64,000 nucleotides of DNA from sequence record OM386655.1; one strand, written 5' to 3'. The notes beneath the pieces were generated by a model, which saw only the letters and a program-made list of their open reading frames with translations, ran no database searches and had not been told where the DNA came from. The first letter of the stretch is position 1. Every line of letters starts with the position of its first letter. The translations under genes and the position numbers were made by a program. The stretch is from Escherichia phage vB_EcoM_ESCO10. Positions 3,557-41,480 of this stretch are shown piece after piece.

Positions 3557-3575
3557 AATTAGTCTCTTGTTGGTG

Positions 3576-3583
3576 TATAAATA
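3576..3583 (+). promoter_or_regulatory. T4-type late promoter TATAAATA upstream of uvsW
   Basis: exact TATAAATA ~29 nt before uvsW ATG. Confidence 0.45.
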
Positions 3584-3612
3584 TAACTATATTTATTACT
3601 GGGATTATTCCA

Positions 3613-5109
3613 ATGAAGATTAATGTACATTTTGAAGATTTTAGTCATGTCCGAATTGAGTGTGACGATTCCACTTTCTTCGAACTCAGAGACTATTTTA
3701 GTTTTGAAGCCGATGGCTATAAGTTTAACCCAAAGTATCGTTATGGCCAATGGGATGGGAGAATTCGTCTTCTAGACTATAATCGTAAACTCCCTTATGG
3801 TCTGGTTTCACAGATGAGAAAATTCGCAGACCAATTCGAATACCAACTGTGGATTGACCCCCGTATCACCGAAACTGAAGAAATTTCTGAAACCGAATTA
3901 AAAGAATGGATTGCTTCTAAAGAAATCTATTCAGGTAATACTAAGATTGAGCCTCATTGGTATCAAGCTGATGCCGTATTCAATGGTCTTAAACATCGTA
4001 GACGCATTCTTAATTTACCTACATCCGCAGGTAAATCATTAATCCAGGCACTCCTGGCGCGTTATTACGTAGAACATTATGAAGGTAAAATTCTTATCCT
4101 TGTTCCTACTACTGCTCTCGTCGACCAGATGATTAATGACTTCGCTGATTATCGTTTATTCGGTAAACAACATATGCTTGGTATTCGAGCTGGTACCAAA
4201 CGTGATTCAGACGCAATGATTTATGTTTCAACTTATCAAACGGCTGTTAAACAACCTAAAGAATGGTTTGCTCAGTTTGGTATGTTTATGAACGACGAAT
4301 GTCACTTGGCTACAGGTAAGAGTATTTCTACTATTATTGAAGGTCTTACTAATTGCATGTTTAAATTTGGTTTGTCTGGTTCTTTAAAAGACGGTAAAGC
4401 TAACCTGATGCAATACATGGGTTTGTTTGGTGATATTTTTAAACCTGTTTCCACCTCCCAATTAATGGAAGAAGGACAGGTCACCGATTTAAAAATAAAC
4501 AGTATTTTCCTTAGATATCCAGACGAATTCACTGTTAAGATGAAAGGTAAAGATTACCAATCAGAAATTAAAGTCATTACTAAGGCTACTCGTCGTAATA
4601 AATGGGTTGCTAATTTAGCTGTTAAGCTCGCTAAGAAAGAAGAGAACGTATTCTTGATGTTTAAAAACATCGAGCACGGTAAAACTCTTTTTGAAATGGT
4701 TAAAGAGCAACATAAAGAAGTTTATTACGTATCAGGCGAAGTTAATACAGAAACTCGTAATGCTCTTAAGTTAATGGCGGAAAACGGTAAGGGTATTATT
4801 GTTGTGGCAAGTTACGGTGTATTTTCTACAGGTATTTCTGTTAAGAATCTCCATCACGTAATATTTGCCCATCCTGTAAAATCTAAAATTATTGTACTGC
4901 AAACCATCGGTCGTGTACTTCGTAAACATGACAGTAAACAAGTCGCGCAAGTTTTTGATATCATCGACGACATGGGCGTGAAACCTAAATCCAAAGATTC
5001 TAAAAAGAAATACGTTCACCTAAATTATGCATTAAAACATGGATTGGATCGTATTCAACGATATGCAGACGAGAAATTTAATTATGTCATGAAAGAGGTC
5101 CAAATTTGA
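3613..5109 (+). CDS. uvsW: UvsW DNA/RNA helicase (SF2)
   Basis: near full-length match to T4 UvsW as remembered; Walker A LPTSAGKS, DECH box. Confidence 0.95.
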   Translation: MKINVHFEDFSHVRIECDDSTFFELRDYFSFEADGYKFNPKYRYGQWDGRIRLLDYNRKLPYGLVSQMRKFADQFEYQLWIDPRITETEEISETELKEWIASKEIYSGNTKIEPHWYQADAVFNGLKHRRRILNLPTSAGKSLIQALLARYYVEHYEGKILILVPTTALVDQMINDFADYRLFGKQHMLGIRAGTKRDSDAMIYVSTYQTAVKQPKEWFAQFGMFMNDECHLATGKSISTIIEGLTNCMFKFGLSGSLKDGKANLMQYMGLFGDIFKPVSTSQLMEEGQVTDLKINSIFLRYPDEFTVKMKGKDYQSEIKVITKATRRNKWVANLAVKLAKKEENVFLMFKNIEHGKTLFEMVKEQHKEVYYVSGEVNTETRNALKLMAENGKGIIVVASYGVFSTGISVKNLHHVIFAHPVKSKIIVLQTIGRVLRKHDSKQVAQVFDIIDDMGVKPKSKDSKKKYVHLNYALKHGLDRIQRYADEKFNYVMKEVQI

Positions 5110-5801
5110 ATTATCAAAAAATTTATGACAATTTAATTAGAAGCCGAAAGGCTTCTAAACCTGAGGGTTATACAGAATCTCATCATATTATCCCGTCATG
5201 TATTGGCGGGCCTGATACTCAGGAAAATAGAGTACGCCTTACCCCAGAAGAACATTTTATAGCTCATAAATTACTAGCTAAAATTTATCCAAATAACTAC
5301 GGACTCATAAAAGCTGTTATTTCTATGGGTATGAGTTCCAGGACTCATAAAAGACAATTTAGTAAATCATACGGCTGGGAACGTAGACAATTGGCAATTC
5401 TTCAGACTGGCGAAGGAAATCCATTTTACGGTAAGCACCACACTGAAGCTCATAAAGAATACATGAGCAATTTATTTAAAGGTAGACCTATTTTATGGGG
5501 CGATAAAATATCCGCAACTAAAAAAGCGAATCCTTATAAATACACACAAGAACAATGTCAAGCTATATCTGAAAGAAATTCTGGGGTCGGCAACGGCATG
5601 TATGGTAAAAATCATACACCAGAAGCTTCTAAGAAAATTTCAGATAAAGCTAAAGAAAGATATAAAGACCCATCTAAAAACCCGGCAGCTAAAAAGGTTA
5701 CTATACATGGTGTTGAATATGGCTCGATGAAACAAGCTTCCGAAGCCACGGGTCTTTCTCGTCACAAAATCAGAAATTTAATGAAACAGGTGGATTTATG
5801 A
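5106..5801 (+). CDS. HNH homing endonuclease with NUMOD-like DNA-binding repeats
   Basis: HHIIP...N...H motif; two G-N-x-YGK-H-T-E repeats; 4-nt overlaps with uvsW stop and uvsW.1 start; apparent TTG start after AGAGG. Confidence 0.8.
   Translation: MNYQKIYDNLIRSRKASKPEGYTESHHIIPSCIGGPDTQENRVRLTPEEHFIAHKLLAKIYPNNYGLIKAVISMGMSSRTHKRQFSKSYGWERRQLAILQTGEGNPFYGKHHTEAHKEYMSNLFKGRPILWGDKISATKKANPYKYTQEQCQAISERNSGVGNGMYGKNHTPEASKKISDKAKERYKDPSKNPAAKKVTIHGVEYGSMKQASEATGLSRHKIRNLMKQVDL
5106..5801 (+). mobile_element. free-standing homing-endonuclease gene inserted between uvsW and uvsW.1
   Basis: T4 has segE upstream of uvsW, not an HNH gene at this junction. Confidence 0.5.
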
Positions 5802-6875: not shown

Positions 6876-7265
6876 TTAACCACTCTGTGAGAGCTGGATT
6901 CTAATTTGCTCTAATGTGTCCGGGTCGTCAACAATACTAAACTGGACTGTTACTATAATAGAGTTGTCATCATAAACAGGGGTTACACCTACAGCAAGAG
7001 CAGAAATTCTAGGTTCGAAGTTCCGCACAGCGGAAACTATATTACGCTTAATGGTATCTGTTATTAACGGGGTGATATTCTCAAACAACTGATTGCTAAT
7101 ATCACATCCAAATTCAGGCATAAAAGGGCGAGAACCTTTACGGGTAGTAATAATGCCTAACAAACTATTTTTTACTGCACGGGACCCTGTAGCTTTAGCG
7201 ACGTCTCTATTCCAAGACGTCCTCATTTCAGGGTCCAAATCTGAATACATTTTATTGATATTCAT
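6876..7265 (-). CDS. 25: baseplate wedge subunit gp25
   Basis: strong similarity to T4 gp25 (KNSLLGIITTRKGSRPF...PEFGCD). Confidence 0.9.
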   Translation of the reverse strand: MNINKMYSDLDPEMRTSWNRDVAKATGSRAVKNSLLGIITTRKGSRPFMPEFGCDISNQLFENITPLITDTIKRNIVSAVRNFEPRISALAVGVTPVYDDNSIIVTVQFSIVDDPDTLEQIRIQLSQSG

Positions 7266-7888
7266 TACATCACCTTAAAGAACTCTTTAAGTCCCTCAAT
7301 AACGTGGACGGTGTGCTCACCACATTCACAAGAAATAGGTATAGCCAAAATAGGCTTAGGGGCGACTAGAGCGTCATAAACTTCTTTTATATCTTTTTCT
7401 GTTATCACAGAATAAAGGTCATCTAGTTCCGCATCACTTAAATCAGAAAGAAGAAGCTTTTCGCCTGCAGAAGTTAAAATATAATCGATACACCCTGCGA
7501 CCATCATAGCTCTATTTTTGTCTTCAAAGAGTTTAGGATATCTGAACACAATTTTAAAGTTACCAAAGTCCTTAATAACATCAGGCTCTTTACCTAATGT
7601 AGCGCGAGTTAATGTCATAGGGACAACCTGTGAGCGACCACAACTACAAACCCACTCACGTTCTATATTCACTTCAGCTAATGAATGGGCCCACAGGTTT
7701 ATCACCAGGAGCTCAGATTCTTGCTTGTTTAAATCACGAGCATCTGTGCAATTCAAAATGAGTTCATTGATAAAGGACTCTATTCTGTCTTCTAATTTAG
7801 CTTGGAGCAAGTCCTTATACTCTCTGAGGGTAAATGCTCTGCATTTTATAGTCTTGTTTTTAATTTTTACATCAAAAGTATAATTCAT
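7265..7888 (-). CDS. 26: baseplate hub subunit gp26
   Basis: synteny, size 207 aa, TAATG coupling to gene 25. Confidence 0.75.
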   Translation of the reverse strand: MNYTFDVKIKNKTIKCRAFTLREYKDLLQAKLEDRIESFINELILNCTDARDLNKQESELLVINLWAHSLAEVNIEREWVCSCGRSQVVPMTLTRATLGKEPDVIKDFGNFKIVFRYPKLFEDKNRAMMVAGCIDYILTSAGEKLLLSDLSDAELDDLYSVITEKDIKEVYDALVAPKPILAIPISCECGEHTVHVIEGLKEFFKVM

Positions 7889-7906
7889 TGTCTTCTCCTT
7901 TAAGCT

Positions 7907-7914
7907 TATTTATA
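7907..7914 (-). promoter_or_regulatory. late promoter TATAAATA for genes 26-25
   Basis: plus tatttata = minus TATAAATA, ~18 nt upstream of gene 26 ATG. Confidence 0.6.
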
Positions 7915-7918
7915 AATA
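7911..7918 (+). promoter_or_regulatory. late promoter TATAAATA for gene 51 operon
   Basis: exact TATAAATA ~20 nt upstream of gene 51 ATG; overlaps divergent partner. Confidence 0.6.
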
Positions 7919-7938
7919 CATCAATAAGAGGATACCTT

Positions 7939-8691
7939 ATGGCTAATATAGTACGTTGCGAAATGCCTGATGGAGTCCACCGATTTAAACCTTTTACCGT
8001 AGCTGATTATCGTGATTTTATTTTGATTCGAAATGATATGAATAACAAATCACCTGAAGAGCAAAAACAAATTTTAGATGAGTTACTGGAAGAATACTTC
8101 GGTGAGTACCCTATGTCATGGCGACCATACATGTTTATTGAACTGTATACGTCATCTCTCGGCAAGACCAAAATTCCTATCCGTTACACTTGCAGTAAGT
8201 GTGAAAAAGATAGACAAGTTTTATTTAATTTGAAGCAGACTAAGTTAGATAACCCTACAATTGAAGTGGCTGGCTTGAAACTGACCTTCAAATTCCCTGA
8301 AATAGAATATCATGATAAATCTGAATTGATTTTGAATACCCTCCAAACTGTAGAAGATGAAAACGGGGCCTATAATTGGGTAGACCTTTCTGAAGAGGAC
8401 CAGTTAGCTGTAATAGATGCTATAGACTTATCTACTTTAGAGGATATAGTCAAACAAACCAGCCCTATTCATTTCGAACTCAAGTATGGATGCTGTAATC
8501 GTAGAACAATTACGTATACCGATATTTTAGAAGTGTTTAAGCTTATAGTCAATCCGGATGAGATATTTTTATTTTACCAAATAAACCATTTACTGGTAAA
8601 GAACAATTATTCGTTAGAAAGCATTATGCAGATGATTCCAATCGAACGCGGTATTGCTTTGTCTTTGGTTGAAAAGGACCTTAAGAAATGA
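7939..8691 (+). CDS. 51: baseplate hub assembly catalyst gp51
   Basis: synteny; ATG 7939 with AAGAGGA SD preferred over track TTG 7888. Confidence 0.75.
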
Positions 8692-9857
8692 GTTCAAAAA
8701 CTATGCAGCGTGAAGGCTTTCCTAATATTAGTATACGCCTTTACGAAGATTATGACGCCTGGTTAGAGCATCGTTTTGTTGAACTAGGCGCGACATTTAC
8801 TACCCTAACAATGCGAGACGGGCTTTATGGTAGTAATGAAGGATTGCTCCAGTTTTATGATGCAAAAAACCTTCATACCAAAATGGATGGTGAACAGATT
8901 ATCCAAGTTTCCGTTAAGAACGCCAACTCAGAACGTACCCAATCAAGAATTTATGGAACCAAGCATTTTGCCGTAGGAGTGGATTCTAAGGGCGATAATA
9001 TCATAACAATACAACTCGCCCCTATCCACTTTTTAGAAAATCTTAAATTCGGACGTATGTTTTTCCCTAGTGTTCAAGAAACATTAACTGAAATGATTGG
9101 GGTTATTTACCAGGACCGACCACTTCTTGCCCCACCGCTGAACGGGATAAACGTTTATGTTCCTAATGTCCCGTGGTGCGATTCTATGGATAGATATATG
9201 GAGTTTGTACGAGAAGTCGGTATGGCTGTTGAATCTGATAAATTTGTATTTGTTTGGGAAGATATAGATGGTATTTCTATTATGGACTACGAATTTATGG
9301 TTAATCAAGAGCCGATCAATTTTGTAGTAGGTGAGCCTCGTTTAATAGGGCAGTATGTCCAAGATATGGACACTCCTATTGCATTTGATTTTGAGTGGCT
9401 AACTAAAGCTAACCAACATATCCGAAAACCATACGAAAATGCTACAGTATACGCTCATTCGTTCTTAGATAAAAACGCTACACGAATTACTTTTGGAGAC
9501 GGGCAAAACAGTATACTAGTTTCTCGTTCCGGCGGATATTCTGATTATACATATCGAAACGGATTTGAAGAAGCCGATAGATTAGTTACTATGGCCCAGT
9601 ATGATGGGTATGCTCATTGCAAGGTATACGGGAACTTTGAATTAACCCCAGGTGATAAGATTAATTTCTATGACCCTAAAAACCAATTCCAGTACGATTT
9701 TTATGTAGACGAAGTTATTCATGAAGTGAGTAACAATACATCAATTACAAACCTTTATATGTTTACCAATGGTAAGCCTATTAAGATTGAAGAACCACCG
9801 AAGGTTAAAAATGAACTTAAAACTGATACTCCCGATCAAGAAAATAACGCTGGGTGA
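8688..9857 (+). CDS. 27: baseplate hub subunit gp27
   Basis: synteny and size 389 aa; ATGA overlap with gene 51. Confidence 0.8.
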
Positions 9858-10332
9858 TAAAGAGATTTCTATTCCTAAATTAGGTCTTAAACACCAGAAA
9901 TTAGTTAAAGATGAAAAGGACCCTTATAAAGCTCTTCATATATTAATGGATTCCATTTATAAGGGTTTAACTGCAGCAGAAACTGATTTTGCCGCACTCC
10001 ATCTTTTAGAATTCAACGGACGTCTAAAAGAAAAAGTAACCAAAGATGGATTTACATATAATCTAAATGACCTTTATATCTGCCAACGTCTTGAATTCCA
10101 ATTCCAAGGTAAAACGTTTAAATTTAAATCACACGAACCATTCCAAACATTTGGTCCTGTTGATAGTGTACTACAATCTCTTTATCTTGGTGATGATGTA
10201 CCAGATTTTCTGGATATGCCTGCCTTTGTTGCGACATGGGCCGACGATATAACTTCTACTGTAGCTATCCCTGGTCCTAATGGTCCTATTAAAGGATTGC
10301 TTAAAATCATGGATATCTTAAATGAAGAATGA
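9811..10332 (+). CDS. 28: baseplate hub distal subunit gp28
   Basis: synteny; internal ATG ([11 protein letters not shown]) chosen, overlaps gene 27 end. Confidence 0.6.
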
Positions 10333-12058
10333 ATCTAATCAGAATAGTTTTCGTCGTAATAAACTGATTGAACAAATGGCTCCTCAGCGTCGTGCTGAGG
10401 CGCTAGCCCAAACTCAGAACGACGAATTAGGAAATATAACAGAAGCTTTATCAGAAACCCAGGCATCGTCTGAATTGCTCTCTGAAGTTGTTGAAACAAA
10501 GTCTAATCAGATTATTAGTTCTGTAGACCGAGTAGATAAAAGTGTCCAAGATGTTGTCGCTGGAACAGAATTAACAGCTGAAGCTATATCAGAACAGACC
10601 CAACAATCTAAAGCTCTTTCAGACGCATTAAACGAAAAGATTAATAAGCTTTCTAATATGTTGGAGGCTAAATTTTCTGGTATTTCTATACCACCAGAAG
10701 GGAGCTCGCTAAAGGTTATTGAGGACTCTATTCCAGAAGAACCTAAGGCTGAAACTCCTAAAGTCCCGGCAGTTATTGAAGATATTCTCCCGCCGGAAGA
10801 TAATAAACCTGATGCTGAATTTGTACCAGAGCCTCCTAAAAATTCGGATGAAGGTGAAGAAGGTGGTAAGAGTTCTCTTTCTGATAAAATTGAAGCCCTT
10901 ACAAAAATAACCGAAAAAGGATTTAAAGCTTCTGTAAGCGTAGCCGATAGAATTTCAGGTATGCTTTTTAAGTATACCATTACTGCTGCCGCTGAAGCAG
11001 CTAAACTGGCCGCTGGTCTGGTTCTTTTAATATTTGGTATAGATGCCATTAGAGTTTACTTCCAATATTTTATGAAGCAATTTGAAGCCGGTTGGAAAGA
11101 ATTTAACGAAAAGTTTAAAGAGTGGGGACCTGTACTTGAAGGATTAATGACTTGGGCCAAGAATGCTGAAGCCATGTTTAGTGAAGGAAATTGGCTAGGC
11201 CTAGCTGAAGCTATTATTCGTGGTATGGTTAATCTTACTAAAAATATGGCACAACTTTTAATGCTTGGTATTTCTAAGTTGATTTCATCTATTTTAAGTA
11301 AAATACCTGGTATGGGTGATTTAGCTGAAAATGTAGAGGCGTCCGCTTTAATGTCGTATCAACAAAATACAGGAGCCACTTTAGATGACGAAGACCAAAC
11401 TAAAGTAGCCAAGTACCATGATAGACGTTCAGCAGAGGCTTTAGAAACAGCCGAGAAAATGAATAAGAAGTATAAAGATAAACCTGAGCTTATAAACCAG
11501 GCAGAGAAATACGGTAATCTTACCAAAGAACAAGCTGACCAGTTACGTGCAGGTGGAATTGACACAAGCTTCCGCGACCTCCCTGAAGAAGAACGTTTGG
11601 ACTATTTCAAGAAACGTGATAAAGCCCAGGCTGATATTATTCGTTTAACCCAAACCGCTGATAATATAATGAAGCCTGATTCTAAAGATATCGAAAACGC
11701 TAAGGCATTTAAAGCGGATATCGAGAAACAATTAGCCGACCCTATTATGGCTAAAGGTGGAGCACCCAAAGACCTTAATATTCAGCAATTACTTGATAAG
11801 ATGGATAAATCTTTAGAGAAATTTAATGATGCTGAAAAGCCTAAACCAGCTTCTGTAGCTGAAGCCCCTGAAACAGCTCAAGCTAAAAAGGTTGACGAGC
11901 AAATGAGAGCAAAGGAAAATGCTAAATATAGTCAGCAAGCTCCAACTCAAATAAATCAGCAAACGAATATCAAGAAAACGAGTAAGACTAGTTATAATTT
12001 ACCACCACAGTCTTCTACTCCTGCCCCTGGTATGCGTCAAGCTACTAAAGTTAATTAG
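10322..12058 (+). CDS. 29: baseplate hub subunit / tail length determinator gp29
   Basis: 578 aa, low-complexity central region, synteny. Confidence 0.8.
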   Translation: MKNESNQNSFRRNKLIEQMAPQRRAEALAQTQNDELGNITEALSETQASSELLSEVVETKSNQIISSVDRVDKSVQDVVAGTELTAEAISEQTQQSKALSDALNEKINKLSNMLEAKFSGISIPPEGSSLKVIEDSIPEEPKAETPKVPAVIEDILPPEDNKPDAEFVPEPPKNSDEGEEGGKSSLSDKIEALTKITEKGFKASVSVADRISGMLFKYTITAAAEAAKLAAGLVLLIFGIDAIRVYFQYFMKQFEAGWKEFNEKFKEWGPVLEGLMTWAKNAEAMFSEGNWLGLAEAIIRGMVNLTKNMAQLLMLGISKLISSILSKIPGMGDLAENVEASALMSYQQNTGATLDDEDQTKVAKYHDRRSAEALETAEKMNKKYKDKPELINQAEKYGNLTKEQADQLRAGGIDTSFRDLPEEERLDYFKKRDKAQADIIRLTQTADNIMKPDSKDIENAKAFKADIEKQLADPIMAKGGAPKDLNIQQLLDKMDKSLEKFNDAEKPKPASVAEAPETAQAKKVDEQMRAKENAKYSQQAPTQINQQTNIKKTSKTSYNLPPQSSTPAPGMRQATKVN

Positions 12059-12066
12059 GATTGATA

Positions 12067-13155
12067 ATGAAAGTAAAAGAACTCGACTTTGATGTAGCCT
12101 CCTTATTTAAAGGAGGTTCAAAAACCTCCGCAGGTCAATCTAAAGCTAAACCGGCCCAAACTACGGTAACAGCCCAGTATCCAGCAGAGAGGGCTTCCGG
12201 TAATGATACTTCTACAGATATGGTACTAAACGATTTATATAAAAATGGTTTACTTTTTACAGCATATAATTTTAGCTCTCGTGTATCGCCCGATTTGCGT
12301 AATGACCGTTCGAGCCAAATGACTAAAAAGTTTTCAAAAGCCGCTAATAAACTTACCGGTAATACTGGTGGGTTCAGTGCAGTTAAAAACCTGTTTAGTA
12401 GCAACTCTAAAGGAGTAAAATTTGATAGCCAGGCTTTAGCCAACATTTTACTCCCACGTTCCAAGTCTGATGTTGATTCAGTCACCCATAAATTTAATGA
12501 TGTAGGCGAATCATTAATTACTAAAGGCGGTGGTACTGCTACAGGTATTTTGAGTAACGTTGCTAGTACTGCGGTATTTGGTGCATTGGAATCTGTAACT
12601 AATGGGGTAATGGCTGATTCAGGAGAACAGATATATACCACCGCTCGTAGTATGTACGCAGGACCTGATAACCGTACTAAAGTATTTACTTGGGAAATGA
12701 CCCCTAGAAATGCTCAGGACCTTATCCAGATTATCAAAATATACGAAATCTTTAATTATTATTCTTATGGCGAAACAGGCAACTCTGCCTTCGCGGGTGA
12801 ATTAAAAGAGAAGATTGACACATGGTACAGGTCTACATTTAAAAAAGAAGCTATTGATAACTTTGATGGTAAGCTATTAGGAGAAGGTATTACAAGTTTC
12901 CTTTCCAATGTTATTGTAGTAAGTAACCCGACCATTTGGTATATTCGAAACTTTGGCGATACAAGTTCATATGACGGGCGCGAAGATATTTTTGGACCGT
13001 GTCAAATCCAGAGTATACGATTTGACAAAACTCCTGATGGGCATTTTAATGGTTTGGCTATTGCTCCTAACTTACCATCTACATTTAGTTTAGAAGTTAC
13101 TTTCCGTGAAATCATTACTTTGAACCGTGGCTCACTTTATACGGAAGGATTCTAA
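12067..13155 (+). CDS. 48: baseplate tail tube cap gp48
   Basis: synteny, size; ATG 12067 (track TTG 12061). Confidence 0.8.
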   Translation: MKVKELDFDVASLFKGGSKTSAGQSKAKPAQTTVTAQYPAERASGNDTSTDMVLNDLYKNGLLFTAYNFSSRVSPDLRNDRSSQMTKKFSKAANKLTGNTGGFSAVKNLFSSNSKGVKFDSQALANILLPRSKSDVDSVTHKFNDVGESLITKGGGTATGILSNVASTAVFGALESVTNGVMADSGEQIYTTARSMYAGPDNRTKVFTWEMTPRNAQDLIQIIKIYEIFNYYSYGETGNSAFAGELKEKIDTWYRSTFKKEAIDNFDGKLLGEGITSFLSNVIVVSNPTIWYIRNFGDTSSYDGREDIFGPCQIQSIRFDKTPDGHFNGLAIAPNLPSTFSLEVTFREIITLNRGSLYTEGF

Positions 13156-14108
13156 TGTATACTTTACAAGAATTTCAGAATCAGGCAATTAATATTGACC
13201 TACAAAGGAATAACCTGTTTAGCGTAGTATTTGCTACAGTTCCTTCTTCTAAATCCCAAGCGCTCCTCGACCAGTTCGGTGGAGCTTTATTTAACAACAT
13301 CCCTTTAAATACAGATTTGCTGGGTATTACACAAGGAGAGTTGACTCAAGGTGTTACGACATTAGTGACAGCGGGCACTCAGAAGTTGATTCGTAAGTCA
13401 GGCATAAGTAAATATCTGATTGGTGCTATGTCATCCAGGGTTGTGCAGAGTTTACTAGGTGAGTTTGAAGTCGGGACTTATCTTATGGATTTTTTCAATA
13501 TGGCTTATCCCACTGCGGGACTTTTAGTCCATGCAGTTAAAATCCCGGATAACACGTTGAATTATGAAATGGACCTTAACCATAACTCTCCTAATATAAA
13601 AATCACTGGAAGAGAATATTCCCCATTAGTATTAAGCTTCCGTATGGATTCTGAAGCTGCTAACTACCGTGCTTTTAATGATTGGGTCAATAGTGTCCAA
13701 GACCCTATTACGCAGCTAAGAGCATTACCTGAAGATGTTGAAGCTGACATCCAAGTCAACCTTCATTCTCGTAACGGATTGCCACATACGGTAGTAATGC
13801 TTAACGGTTGCGTTCCCGTTAGTGTTTCATCACCGGAATTATCCTACGACGGTGATAACCAAATTGCTTCGTTTGATGTTACATTTGCTTATAGAAGTAT
13901 ACAGACAGGTGCAGTTGGTAAACAAGCTGCTTACGAATGGTTGGAAGATAAAGTCCTTAAAGGTGTAGCGGGTCTAAGTGAGAGTAACTCATTAAGTTCT
14001 TCTGTAGCTAAATTGAGTAGACTTTCAGGAGCAGCAAGTGGATTGACTGGATTGGTTAATACGTTTGGTGGACGTGCTATTAATAATGGAATATCAAGGT
14101 TGTTATAA
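13155..14108 (+). CDS. 54: baseplate tail tube initiator gp54
   Basis: synteny, size 317 aa; TAATG coupling. Confidence 0.8.
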   Translation: MYTLQEFQNQAINIDLQRNNLFSVVFATVPSSKSQALLDQFGGALFNNIPLNTDLLGITQGELTQGVTTLVTAGTQKLIRKSGISKYLIGAMSSRVVQSLLGEFEVGTYLMDFFNMAYPTAGLLVHAVKIPDNTLNYEMDLNHNSPNIKITGREYSPLVLSFRMDSEAANYRAFNDWVNSVQDPITQLRALPEDVEADIQVNLHSRNGLPHTVVMLNGCVPVSVSSPELSYDGDNQIASFDVTFAYRSIQTGAVGKQAAYEWLEDKVLKGVAGLSESNSLSSSVAKLSRLSGAASGLTGLVNTFGGRAINNGISRLL

Positions 14109-14110
14109 TA

Positions 14111-14136
14111 AAAAAGGAGAGCCTTGGCTCTCCTTT
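14111..14136. terminator. bidirectional intrinsic terminator after gene 54
   Basis: GGAGAGC-CTTG-GCTCTCC hairpin, A5 upstream, TTT downstream. Confidence 0.6.
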
Positions 14137-40921: not shown

Positions 40922-41220
40922 AACAAGAAATCCAGGGTATTAGTTTTTTGCGTTCGGGCCATTGAAGGACGAAGCAAGTTATCATCAATGGCTTCGTTCA
41001 TAATTTTATCAATAATTCCTGCAGGCAAATATCGAGCAAAGTTACCTTCAGGGATGCTGTTCTCTTCCAACCATGCAGTAGCCGCTTCGAGATAGCTACA
41101 TCCTTCAGCCTCAACAAAGGCCTCAATATCGAGACCATTTTGTTGCTTGTTCACCAATACATGGACTGGTTCGGAAGCGGTATTAACCGCTCCATCAAAA
41201 TCATTCAAAGATTGTGTCAT
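40918..41220 (-). CDS. 33: gp33 late transcription co-activator
   Basis: C-terminus ...NLLRPSMARTQKTNTLDFLL matches T4 gp33. Confidence 0.8.
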   Translation of the reverse strand: MTQSLNDFDGAVNTASEPVHVLVNKQQNGLDIEAFVEAEGCSYLEAATAWLEENSIPEGNFARYLPAGIIDKIMNEAIDDNLLRPSMARTQKTNTLDFLL

Positions 41221-41470
41221 ACAGTTCTACCACTTCAGTTTTCTCATCTTCGAAACGTTCACGAGTACCTTTATGATACAGGGAGAACAGTTGATTAAAC
41301 ATTTTACCGTCGACACCAAGTTCGGTCTTAGCACGGTCTTTGATATCTTTAATTTCGTCACCGTATGCTTCCATTTTTAATTTAGTATCGGAAGCAGTTT
41401 TAATCAACTGGGCCAGGGTATTACCATGTTCTTCTTGATTGAATTCAACTTTCACTTTTTCTTTAGCCAT
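41201..41470 (-). CDS. dsbA: DsbA double-stranded DNA-binding protein
   Basis: synteny; ATG (MAKEK) preferred over track GTG 41479. Confidence 0.7.
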   Translation of the reverse strand: MAKEKVKVEFNQEEHGNTLAQLIKTASDTKLKMEAYGDEIKDIKDRAKTELGVDGKMFNQLFSLYHKGTRERFEDEKTEVVELYDTIFE

Positions 41471-41480
41471 TATATTCACC

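Follow-up and report, generated by a model that had tools for sequence, protein, structure and literature searches.

A palindrome between baseplate genes 26 and 51 of Escherichia phage vB_EcoM_ESCO10 is a probable pair of overlapping, divergent late promoters

The spacer between the baseplate genes 26 and 51 of Escherichia phage vB_EcoM_ESCO10 contains a perfect 12-bp palindrome, TATTTATAAATA, at positions 7907–7918 of the 64,000-nt stretch of record OM386655.1 that was analysed here (hereafter the window). We consider it very probable that this palindrome is a back-to-back pair of consensus T4-type late promoters with 4 bp in common, driving genes 26-25 in one direction and genes 51 to 54 in the other, with the start sites and the activity of both promoters deduced from the sequence. 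The site marks, in a Dhakavirus, the two positions at which late transcription of the baseplate hub genes is predicted to begin, and has little reach beyond annotation.

Results

Two late-promoter boxes overlap within the palindrome

Late promoters of T4 consist of TATAAATA at positions −13 to −6 and have no −35 element (PMC1524935; PMC2988020); they are recognised by gp55-RNA polymerase and activated by gp33 together with the gp45 clamp (PMC7892883; PMC2988020). About 50 such sites are known in T4 (PMC2988020), and Geiduschek's review warns that not all of those listed are proven to be active in vivo (PMC2988020). As the preliminary description of this DNA had it, TATAAATA occurs on both strands of the palindrome: by motif match, the box of the rightward promoter (P51) lies at 7911–7918 on the plus strand and that of the leftward promoter (P26) at 7914–7907 on the minus strand, each taken as −13 to −6 (consensus position from PMC1524935), and the TATA at 7911–7914 forms the 4-bp overlap that is common to both. 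The distance of 18–20 nt to the divergent start codons given in the same description is exact, with 18 nt separating the palindrome from the start of gene 26 (7888, minus strand) and 20 nt from that of gene 51 (7939, plus strand), the ATG of the latter being placed at 7939 and not at 7940. Both boxes lack a −35 element and stand upstream of orthologues of late genes. The proteins that act at T4 late promoters are also encoded by the phage or by a near-identical relative: gp33 lies in the window (PF16805), while gp45, gp44/62 and gp55 (matched to T4 gp55, PDB 7D7C chain F, with E 1e-93) are found, outside the span of the window, in the genome of Escherichia phage vB_EcoM-VR5 (Dhakavirus, Tevenvirinae), which is 99.5% identical over positions 7200–8700.

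When the −13 to −6 rule (PMC1524935) is applied to the two boxes, transcription of the gene 51 operon is predicted to start at 7924 on the plus strand, with a 15-nt leader (AUAAGAGGAUACCUU), and that of the gene 26-25 unit at 7901 on the minus strand, with a 13-nt leader (AAAGGAGAAGACA), so that the predicted starts are 23 bp apart. Both leaders hold a Shine-Dalgarno sequence and nothing else: AAGAGGA at 7926–7932 (plus strand) for gene 51, a purine-rich block that is kept at the same place in relatives, and AAGGAG at 7895–7900 (minus strand) for gene 26, which relatives keep as CTCC on the plus strand. A scan of the 26/51 spacer for sigma-70-like promoters returned no site, with counts at the level of shuffled sequences, and single-strand DNA folding of the spacer gave no significant structure (z = −0.24).

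The TATAAATA 8-mer by itself is not enriched in the window (9 occurrences, compared to 7.3 ± 2.6 in shuffles). Since it occurs at chance frequency, the motif alone is weak evidence, and the argument is carried by position and conservation. Promoter status of the TATAAATA sites in the window is marked by position and not by count: six of the nine perfect sites are followed, 18–32 nt downstream, by an ORF start with a Shine-Dalgarno sequence in front of it, and the ORFs belonging to these six are uvsW, 26, 51, 34 and two ORFs of ∼218 aa in the tail-fibre region (47605 and 52429).

The palindrome separates two predicted, divergent baseplate transcription units

The assignment of the flanking genes to 26 and 51, which the preliminary description had made without database searches, was borne out by Pfam matches of both products to PF12322 (‘T4 bacteriophage base plate protein’) and by the neighbouring genes for gp25 and gp27. 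Gene 26 (7265–7888, minus strand) encodes a baseplate hub subunit or hub assembly chaperone of 207 aa (PF12322, E 1.9e-51; annotated accordingly in VR5 and JS10), and its stop is overlapped by gene 25 (6876–7265, minus strand; PF04965), which encodes a baseplate wedge subunit. Gene 51 (7939–8691, plus strand) encodes a hub assembly protein of 250 aa (PF12322, E 5.8e-56) and is followed by genes 27, 28, 29, 48 and 54 (8688–14108, plus strand), which are tightly packed or overlapping and presumably form one operon with it; gp27 combines PF09097 and PF09096. Phages JS10 and JS98 are ∼96% identical over the same region, and their annotation names the genes 25, 26, 51 and 27.

No further NATAAATA box was found on the plus strand from 7918 to 42496, nor on the minus strand from 7907 to 6293. 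P51 is therefore the sole consensus late promoter for genes 51-27-28-29-48-54 (7939–14108), and P26 the sole one for genes 26-25. Given the overlap of the two genes and the absence of another NATAAATA on this strand down to 6293, gene 25 is presumably co-transcribed with gene 26; in T4, translation of gene 25 from the 26-25 intercistronic junction has been documented (PMC3014915). At the far end of the rightward unit, gene 54 and the convergent alt.-3 are separated by a 10-bp G+C-rich hairpin (AAAGGAGAGCC-ttgg-GGCTCTCCTTT, 14113–14136). Its T-run is present on the minus-strand side only, so it would clearly terminate transcription of the leftward early genes, whereas termination of the rightward hub operon at this hairpin is doubtful.

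Both halves of the palindrome are conserved among T4-like phages

To define the conservation of the site we compared 45 related loci, comprising 14 genus-level representatives and 31 IMG/VR loci found with a gp26 alignment. Roughly 1,180 phage records encode gp26, and the representatives include eleven phages that were picked down the ranking of gp26 identity, from 61% to 27%. The exact 12-mer is present in the 26/51 spacer of 40 of the 45 loci (12 of the 14 representatives and 28 of the 31 IMG/VR loci), and the loci that carry it give 24 distinct 72-nt sequences. Carriers belong to Dhakavirus, Tequatrovirus, Gaprivervirus, Winklervirus, Jiaodavirus, Muldoonvirus, Lazarusvirus, Lasallevirus and Bragavirus, and include an unclassified Yersinia phage, such that the T4 arrangement is almost unchanged across many T4-like genera. 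When the sequences were aligned on the palindrome, all 12 columns were invariant (2 bits each), while the three columns on either side held almost no information and elsewhere only the two Shine-Dalgarno blocks were conserved. The distance from the palindrome to the start of gene 26 ranges from 16 to 22 nt across the loci (33 nt in one Acinetobacter phage) and that to the start of gene 51 from 15 to 24 nt. Within the palindrome the outer TATT serves the leftward box only and the outer AATA the rightward box only; as both are invariant and each is needed by one promoter, selection acts on both promoters. The freezing of all 12 positions can be explained in the same way, because the outer 4 bp on each side serve one promoter, the TATA serves both, and an insertion or deletion would kill both.

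Two kinds of exception were found. In Krischvirus (JSE/RB49-like; locus L009, 430–501, and the IMG/VR loci L041–L043) the 70-bp spacer contains TATTTAGT-ATTT-TATAAATA, in which the boxes are 4 bp apart and do not overlap; the rightward box is perfect and the leftward candidate, ACTAAATA, is off consensus at −13 and −12, positions that are known to vary in relatives, e.g. CTAAATA in Aeh1 (PMC1524935). In Aeromonas phage SW69-9 (locus L013, 536–583) a 10-bp palindrome, TATTTAAATA, takes the place of the 12-mer. Each strand here reads TTTAAATA, which departs from the consensus once, at −12; the two copies overlap by 6 bp and lie at normal distances from both starts, and TATTTAAATA reads as a variant form of the same overlapping architecture.

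Other divergent late genes have boxes that face each other

A different solution is seen in the 56-bp spacer (3557–3612) between inh (start 3556, minus strand) and uvsW (start 3613, plus strand), where TATAAATA at 3576–3583 (plus strand) and AATAAATA at 3597–3590 (minus strand) point at each other, 6 bp apart, and the predicted transcripts cross by ∼6 nt. The inh/uvsW spacer of VR5 has two perfect boxes. Likewise, the 47-bp spacer between genes 4 and 53 of T4 (locus L046, 17349 and 17364) has two perfect boxes, face to face and 7 bp apart. Akin to the 26/51 site, these pairs place late boxes for divergent late genes on opposite strands, and simultaneous occupancy is likewise impossible; unlike at the 26/51 site, the boxes are 6–7 bp apart, the transcripts cross by ∼5–6 nt and the leaders are 21–28 nt long. 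Compaction was considered as a sufficient reason for the 26/51 overlap and was rejected, as the face-to-face pairs fit into a spacer of the same length.

Downstream of uvsW, a 231-aa ORF (5106–5801, plus strand) lies between uvsW and uvsW.1 and has two NUMOD3 motifs (PF07460, E 7.8e-12) as well as an HNH-like motif at its N terminus. This ORF is absent from VR5, where uvsW and uvsW.1 abut, and is probably a homing endonuclease insertion. One TATAAATA occurs inside it, at 5535, and no ORF start preceded by a Shine-Dalgarno sequence is found within 120 nt downstream of this copy.

Discussion

Known counterparts of the 26/51 site

The late promoters that had been proposed on both strands are supported by their consensus, their position, the gene context, the T4 orthologue and the purifying selection on both halves of the palindrome. 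In T4 the 26/51 spacer, likewise 50 bp long, carries the identical TATTTATAAATA, with genes 25-26 running leftward, genes 51-27-28-29 running rightward and leaders that hold the Shine-Dalgarno sequences only. The differences are small at the site and larger around it: in T4, 21 and 17 nt separate the palindrome from the starts (here 18 and 20), a shift of 3 bp, and the flanking spacer has diverged, as has gp26 (∼49% identical). The T4 positions that correspond to the two predicted starts are about 116,444 (minus strand) and 116,467 (plus strand). Judged by sequence, the element at 7907–7918 and the T4 P26/P51 pair are orthologous. Overlapping late promoters for divergent transcription of the T4 baseplate cluster were reportedly described by Scarlato, Storlazzi, Gargano and Cascino (Virology, 1989), and the T4 genome review is said to list late promoters for genes 26 and 51. 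An overlapping pair is hence reportedly known already from T4, and the pair described here is an ordinary one. No promoter is annotated across the 26/51 region of the T4 GenBank record, and our search of the open-access literature for the T4 26/51 promoters found no text describing them.

The nearest general parallel is with the prokaryotic bidirectional promoters of Warman, Grainger and colleagues (PMC12825309), which the site resembles in that a short, pseudo-symmetric A/T-rich element of the −10 type can be read in both directions, with overlapping boxes and divergent predicted starts flanking it, and in that one binding event would shut out the other. The spacing of the predicted starts, 23 bp, is among the three that are common in that class (18, 10 and 23). 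It differs from the bidirectional promoters in the machinery, which here would be gp55, gp33 and the sliding clamp instead of sigma-70, with no −35 element, and in having an 8-bp box instead of a hexamer, a perfect consensus and essential mRNAs in both directions.

Predicted transcription from the palindrome and probable mutual exclusion

Based on the T4 system, the host RNA polymerase core with gp55 and gp33, tethered by gp45, would bind TATAAATA on either strand, open the DNA from −12 to +2 and initiate ∼6 nt downstream of the box. Initiation to the left, at ∼7901, would yield the 26-25 message, and initiation to the right, at ∼7924, the 51-27-28-29-48-54 hub message. In the T4 late open complex strand separation extends from −12 to +2, gp33 and the clamp occupy the duplex upstream of it (PMC7892883), and the activated footprint reaches 13 bp further upstream (PMC7892883; PMC2988020). 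Projected onto the 26/51 spacer, the rightward bubble (7912–7925) would reach into the leftward box and melt its upstream end, and vice versa, and the upstream duplex of each complex, with gp33 and the clamp, would cover the start of the other. We infer from both considerations that two late complexes cannot occupy the palindrome together, a sound inference which upholds the mutual exclusion envisaged in the preliminary description, given the −12 to +2 bubble and the upstream location of gp33 and gp45 (PMC7892883).

Alternative readings of the palindrome

Might the 12-mer have arisen randomly in A+T-rich intergenic DNA? The window has a G+C content of 39%, and the TATAAATA 8-mer occurs at chance frequency; the 12-mer, however, is expected just 0.01–0.05 times per window (0.009–0.046 times per 64 kb with Markov models of orders 0 to 5) and is observed once, and the same spacer carries it in 40 of 45 relatives whose spacers have otherwise diverged. 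The comparative data already refute a random origin, to which we assign a negligible probability. Another reading is that only one of the promoters works and that the other box owes its presence to the near-symmetry of TATAAATA, which is nearly self-complementary, so that a partial second match comes cheap; moreover, some listed T4 late sites are without proven activity (PMC2988020). Yet a full second box costs four extra specific bases, and on neither side do these change among 24 distinct spacers while the neighbouring columns vary freely, and the 26-25 and 51-54 units are each without another consensus box. We therefore judge a single working promoter to be very unlikely. The same low standing is given to the proposal that the palindrome serves mainly as an operator for a dimeric DNA-binding protein such as DsbA, instead of or besides the promoter pair. 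Its perfect symmetry would suit such a protein, DsbA binds with low affinity at A/T-rich sites that overlap two late promoters (PMC2988020), and dsbA is present in the window (41201–41479; PF11126). The conserved bases, however, coincide exactly with the two late-promoter boxes and extend to nothing beyond them, and both TATTTAAATA in the Aeromonas phage and the split form in Krischvirus keep promoter-like boxes and lose the 12-bp palindrome. In addition, dsbA is non-essential in T4 (PMC2988020), and the window, like the 57 kb of T4 that were examined, holds a single copy of the 12-mer. All of this makes an operator highly improbable.

With a pair of late promoters as the preferred reading, it can be asked whether the relative amounts of leftward and rightward baseplate transcription are set, or buffered, by the overlap as such. 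This role has some appeal: the bubble, along with gp33 and gp45 upstream, leads to steric exclusion (PMC7892883), identical boxes would give an intrinsic 1:1 choice, the first genes in both directions encode paralogous hub chaperones, and at E. coli bidirectional promoters strong activation in one direction represses the other via competition for polymerase (PMC12825309). Polymerase competition at shared late promoters may have a regulatory effect. Each box has four private bases, 7907–7910 for P26 and 7915–7918 for P51. Against an effect of the overlap as such, Krischvirus keeps the divergent genes with boxes that are 4 bp apart, which indicates that the overlap is not obligatory, and at inh/uvsW in the window and 4/53 in T4 the boxes face each other within 47–56 bp of spacer. 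Any two late promoters within ∼50 bp must clash, and the 4-bp overlap is hence not needed for exclusion. Furthermore, the basal activity of the five E. coli bidirectional promoters that were tested was too low for competition, with the divergent RNA repressed only upon strong activation of one direction (PMC12825309), and the double constraint on the sequence fully explains the invariance of the 12-mer. In light of these points we regard a balancing function of the overlap as rather unlikely. A more elaborate version, which we consider improbable, is that the symmetric core acts as a coin-flip site for equal initiation towards gp26 and gp51, which would also use clamps of either polarity, such that its output would reflect the direction or strand on which replication loads them.

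Symmetry beyond the palindrome

The two genes that lie head to head around the palindrome are themselves related: gp26 and gp51 are distant paralogues by BLASTP (E 1e-4 over ∼200 residues) and by their common PF12322 domain, and the literature counts the two among the hub assembly chaperones (PMC3004832). In some relatives the spacer is also symmetric beyond the 12-mer. The spacer ends of a Proteus phage (Bragavirus; locus L012, 450–500), including start codon and Shine-Dalgarno sequence, form 16-nt arms that are 94% complementary, and those of T4 and Muldoon form 23–24-nt arms that are 71–74% complementary. This extended symmetry could equally be the result of convergence from the requirements for a Shine-Dalgarno sequence and an ATG on both sides; considered along with the paralogy of gp26 and gp51, the quasi-palindromic spacers suggest a possible old inverted duplication around the promoter.
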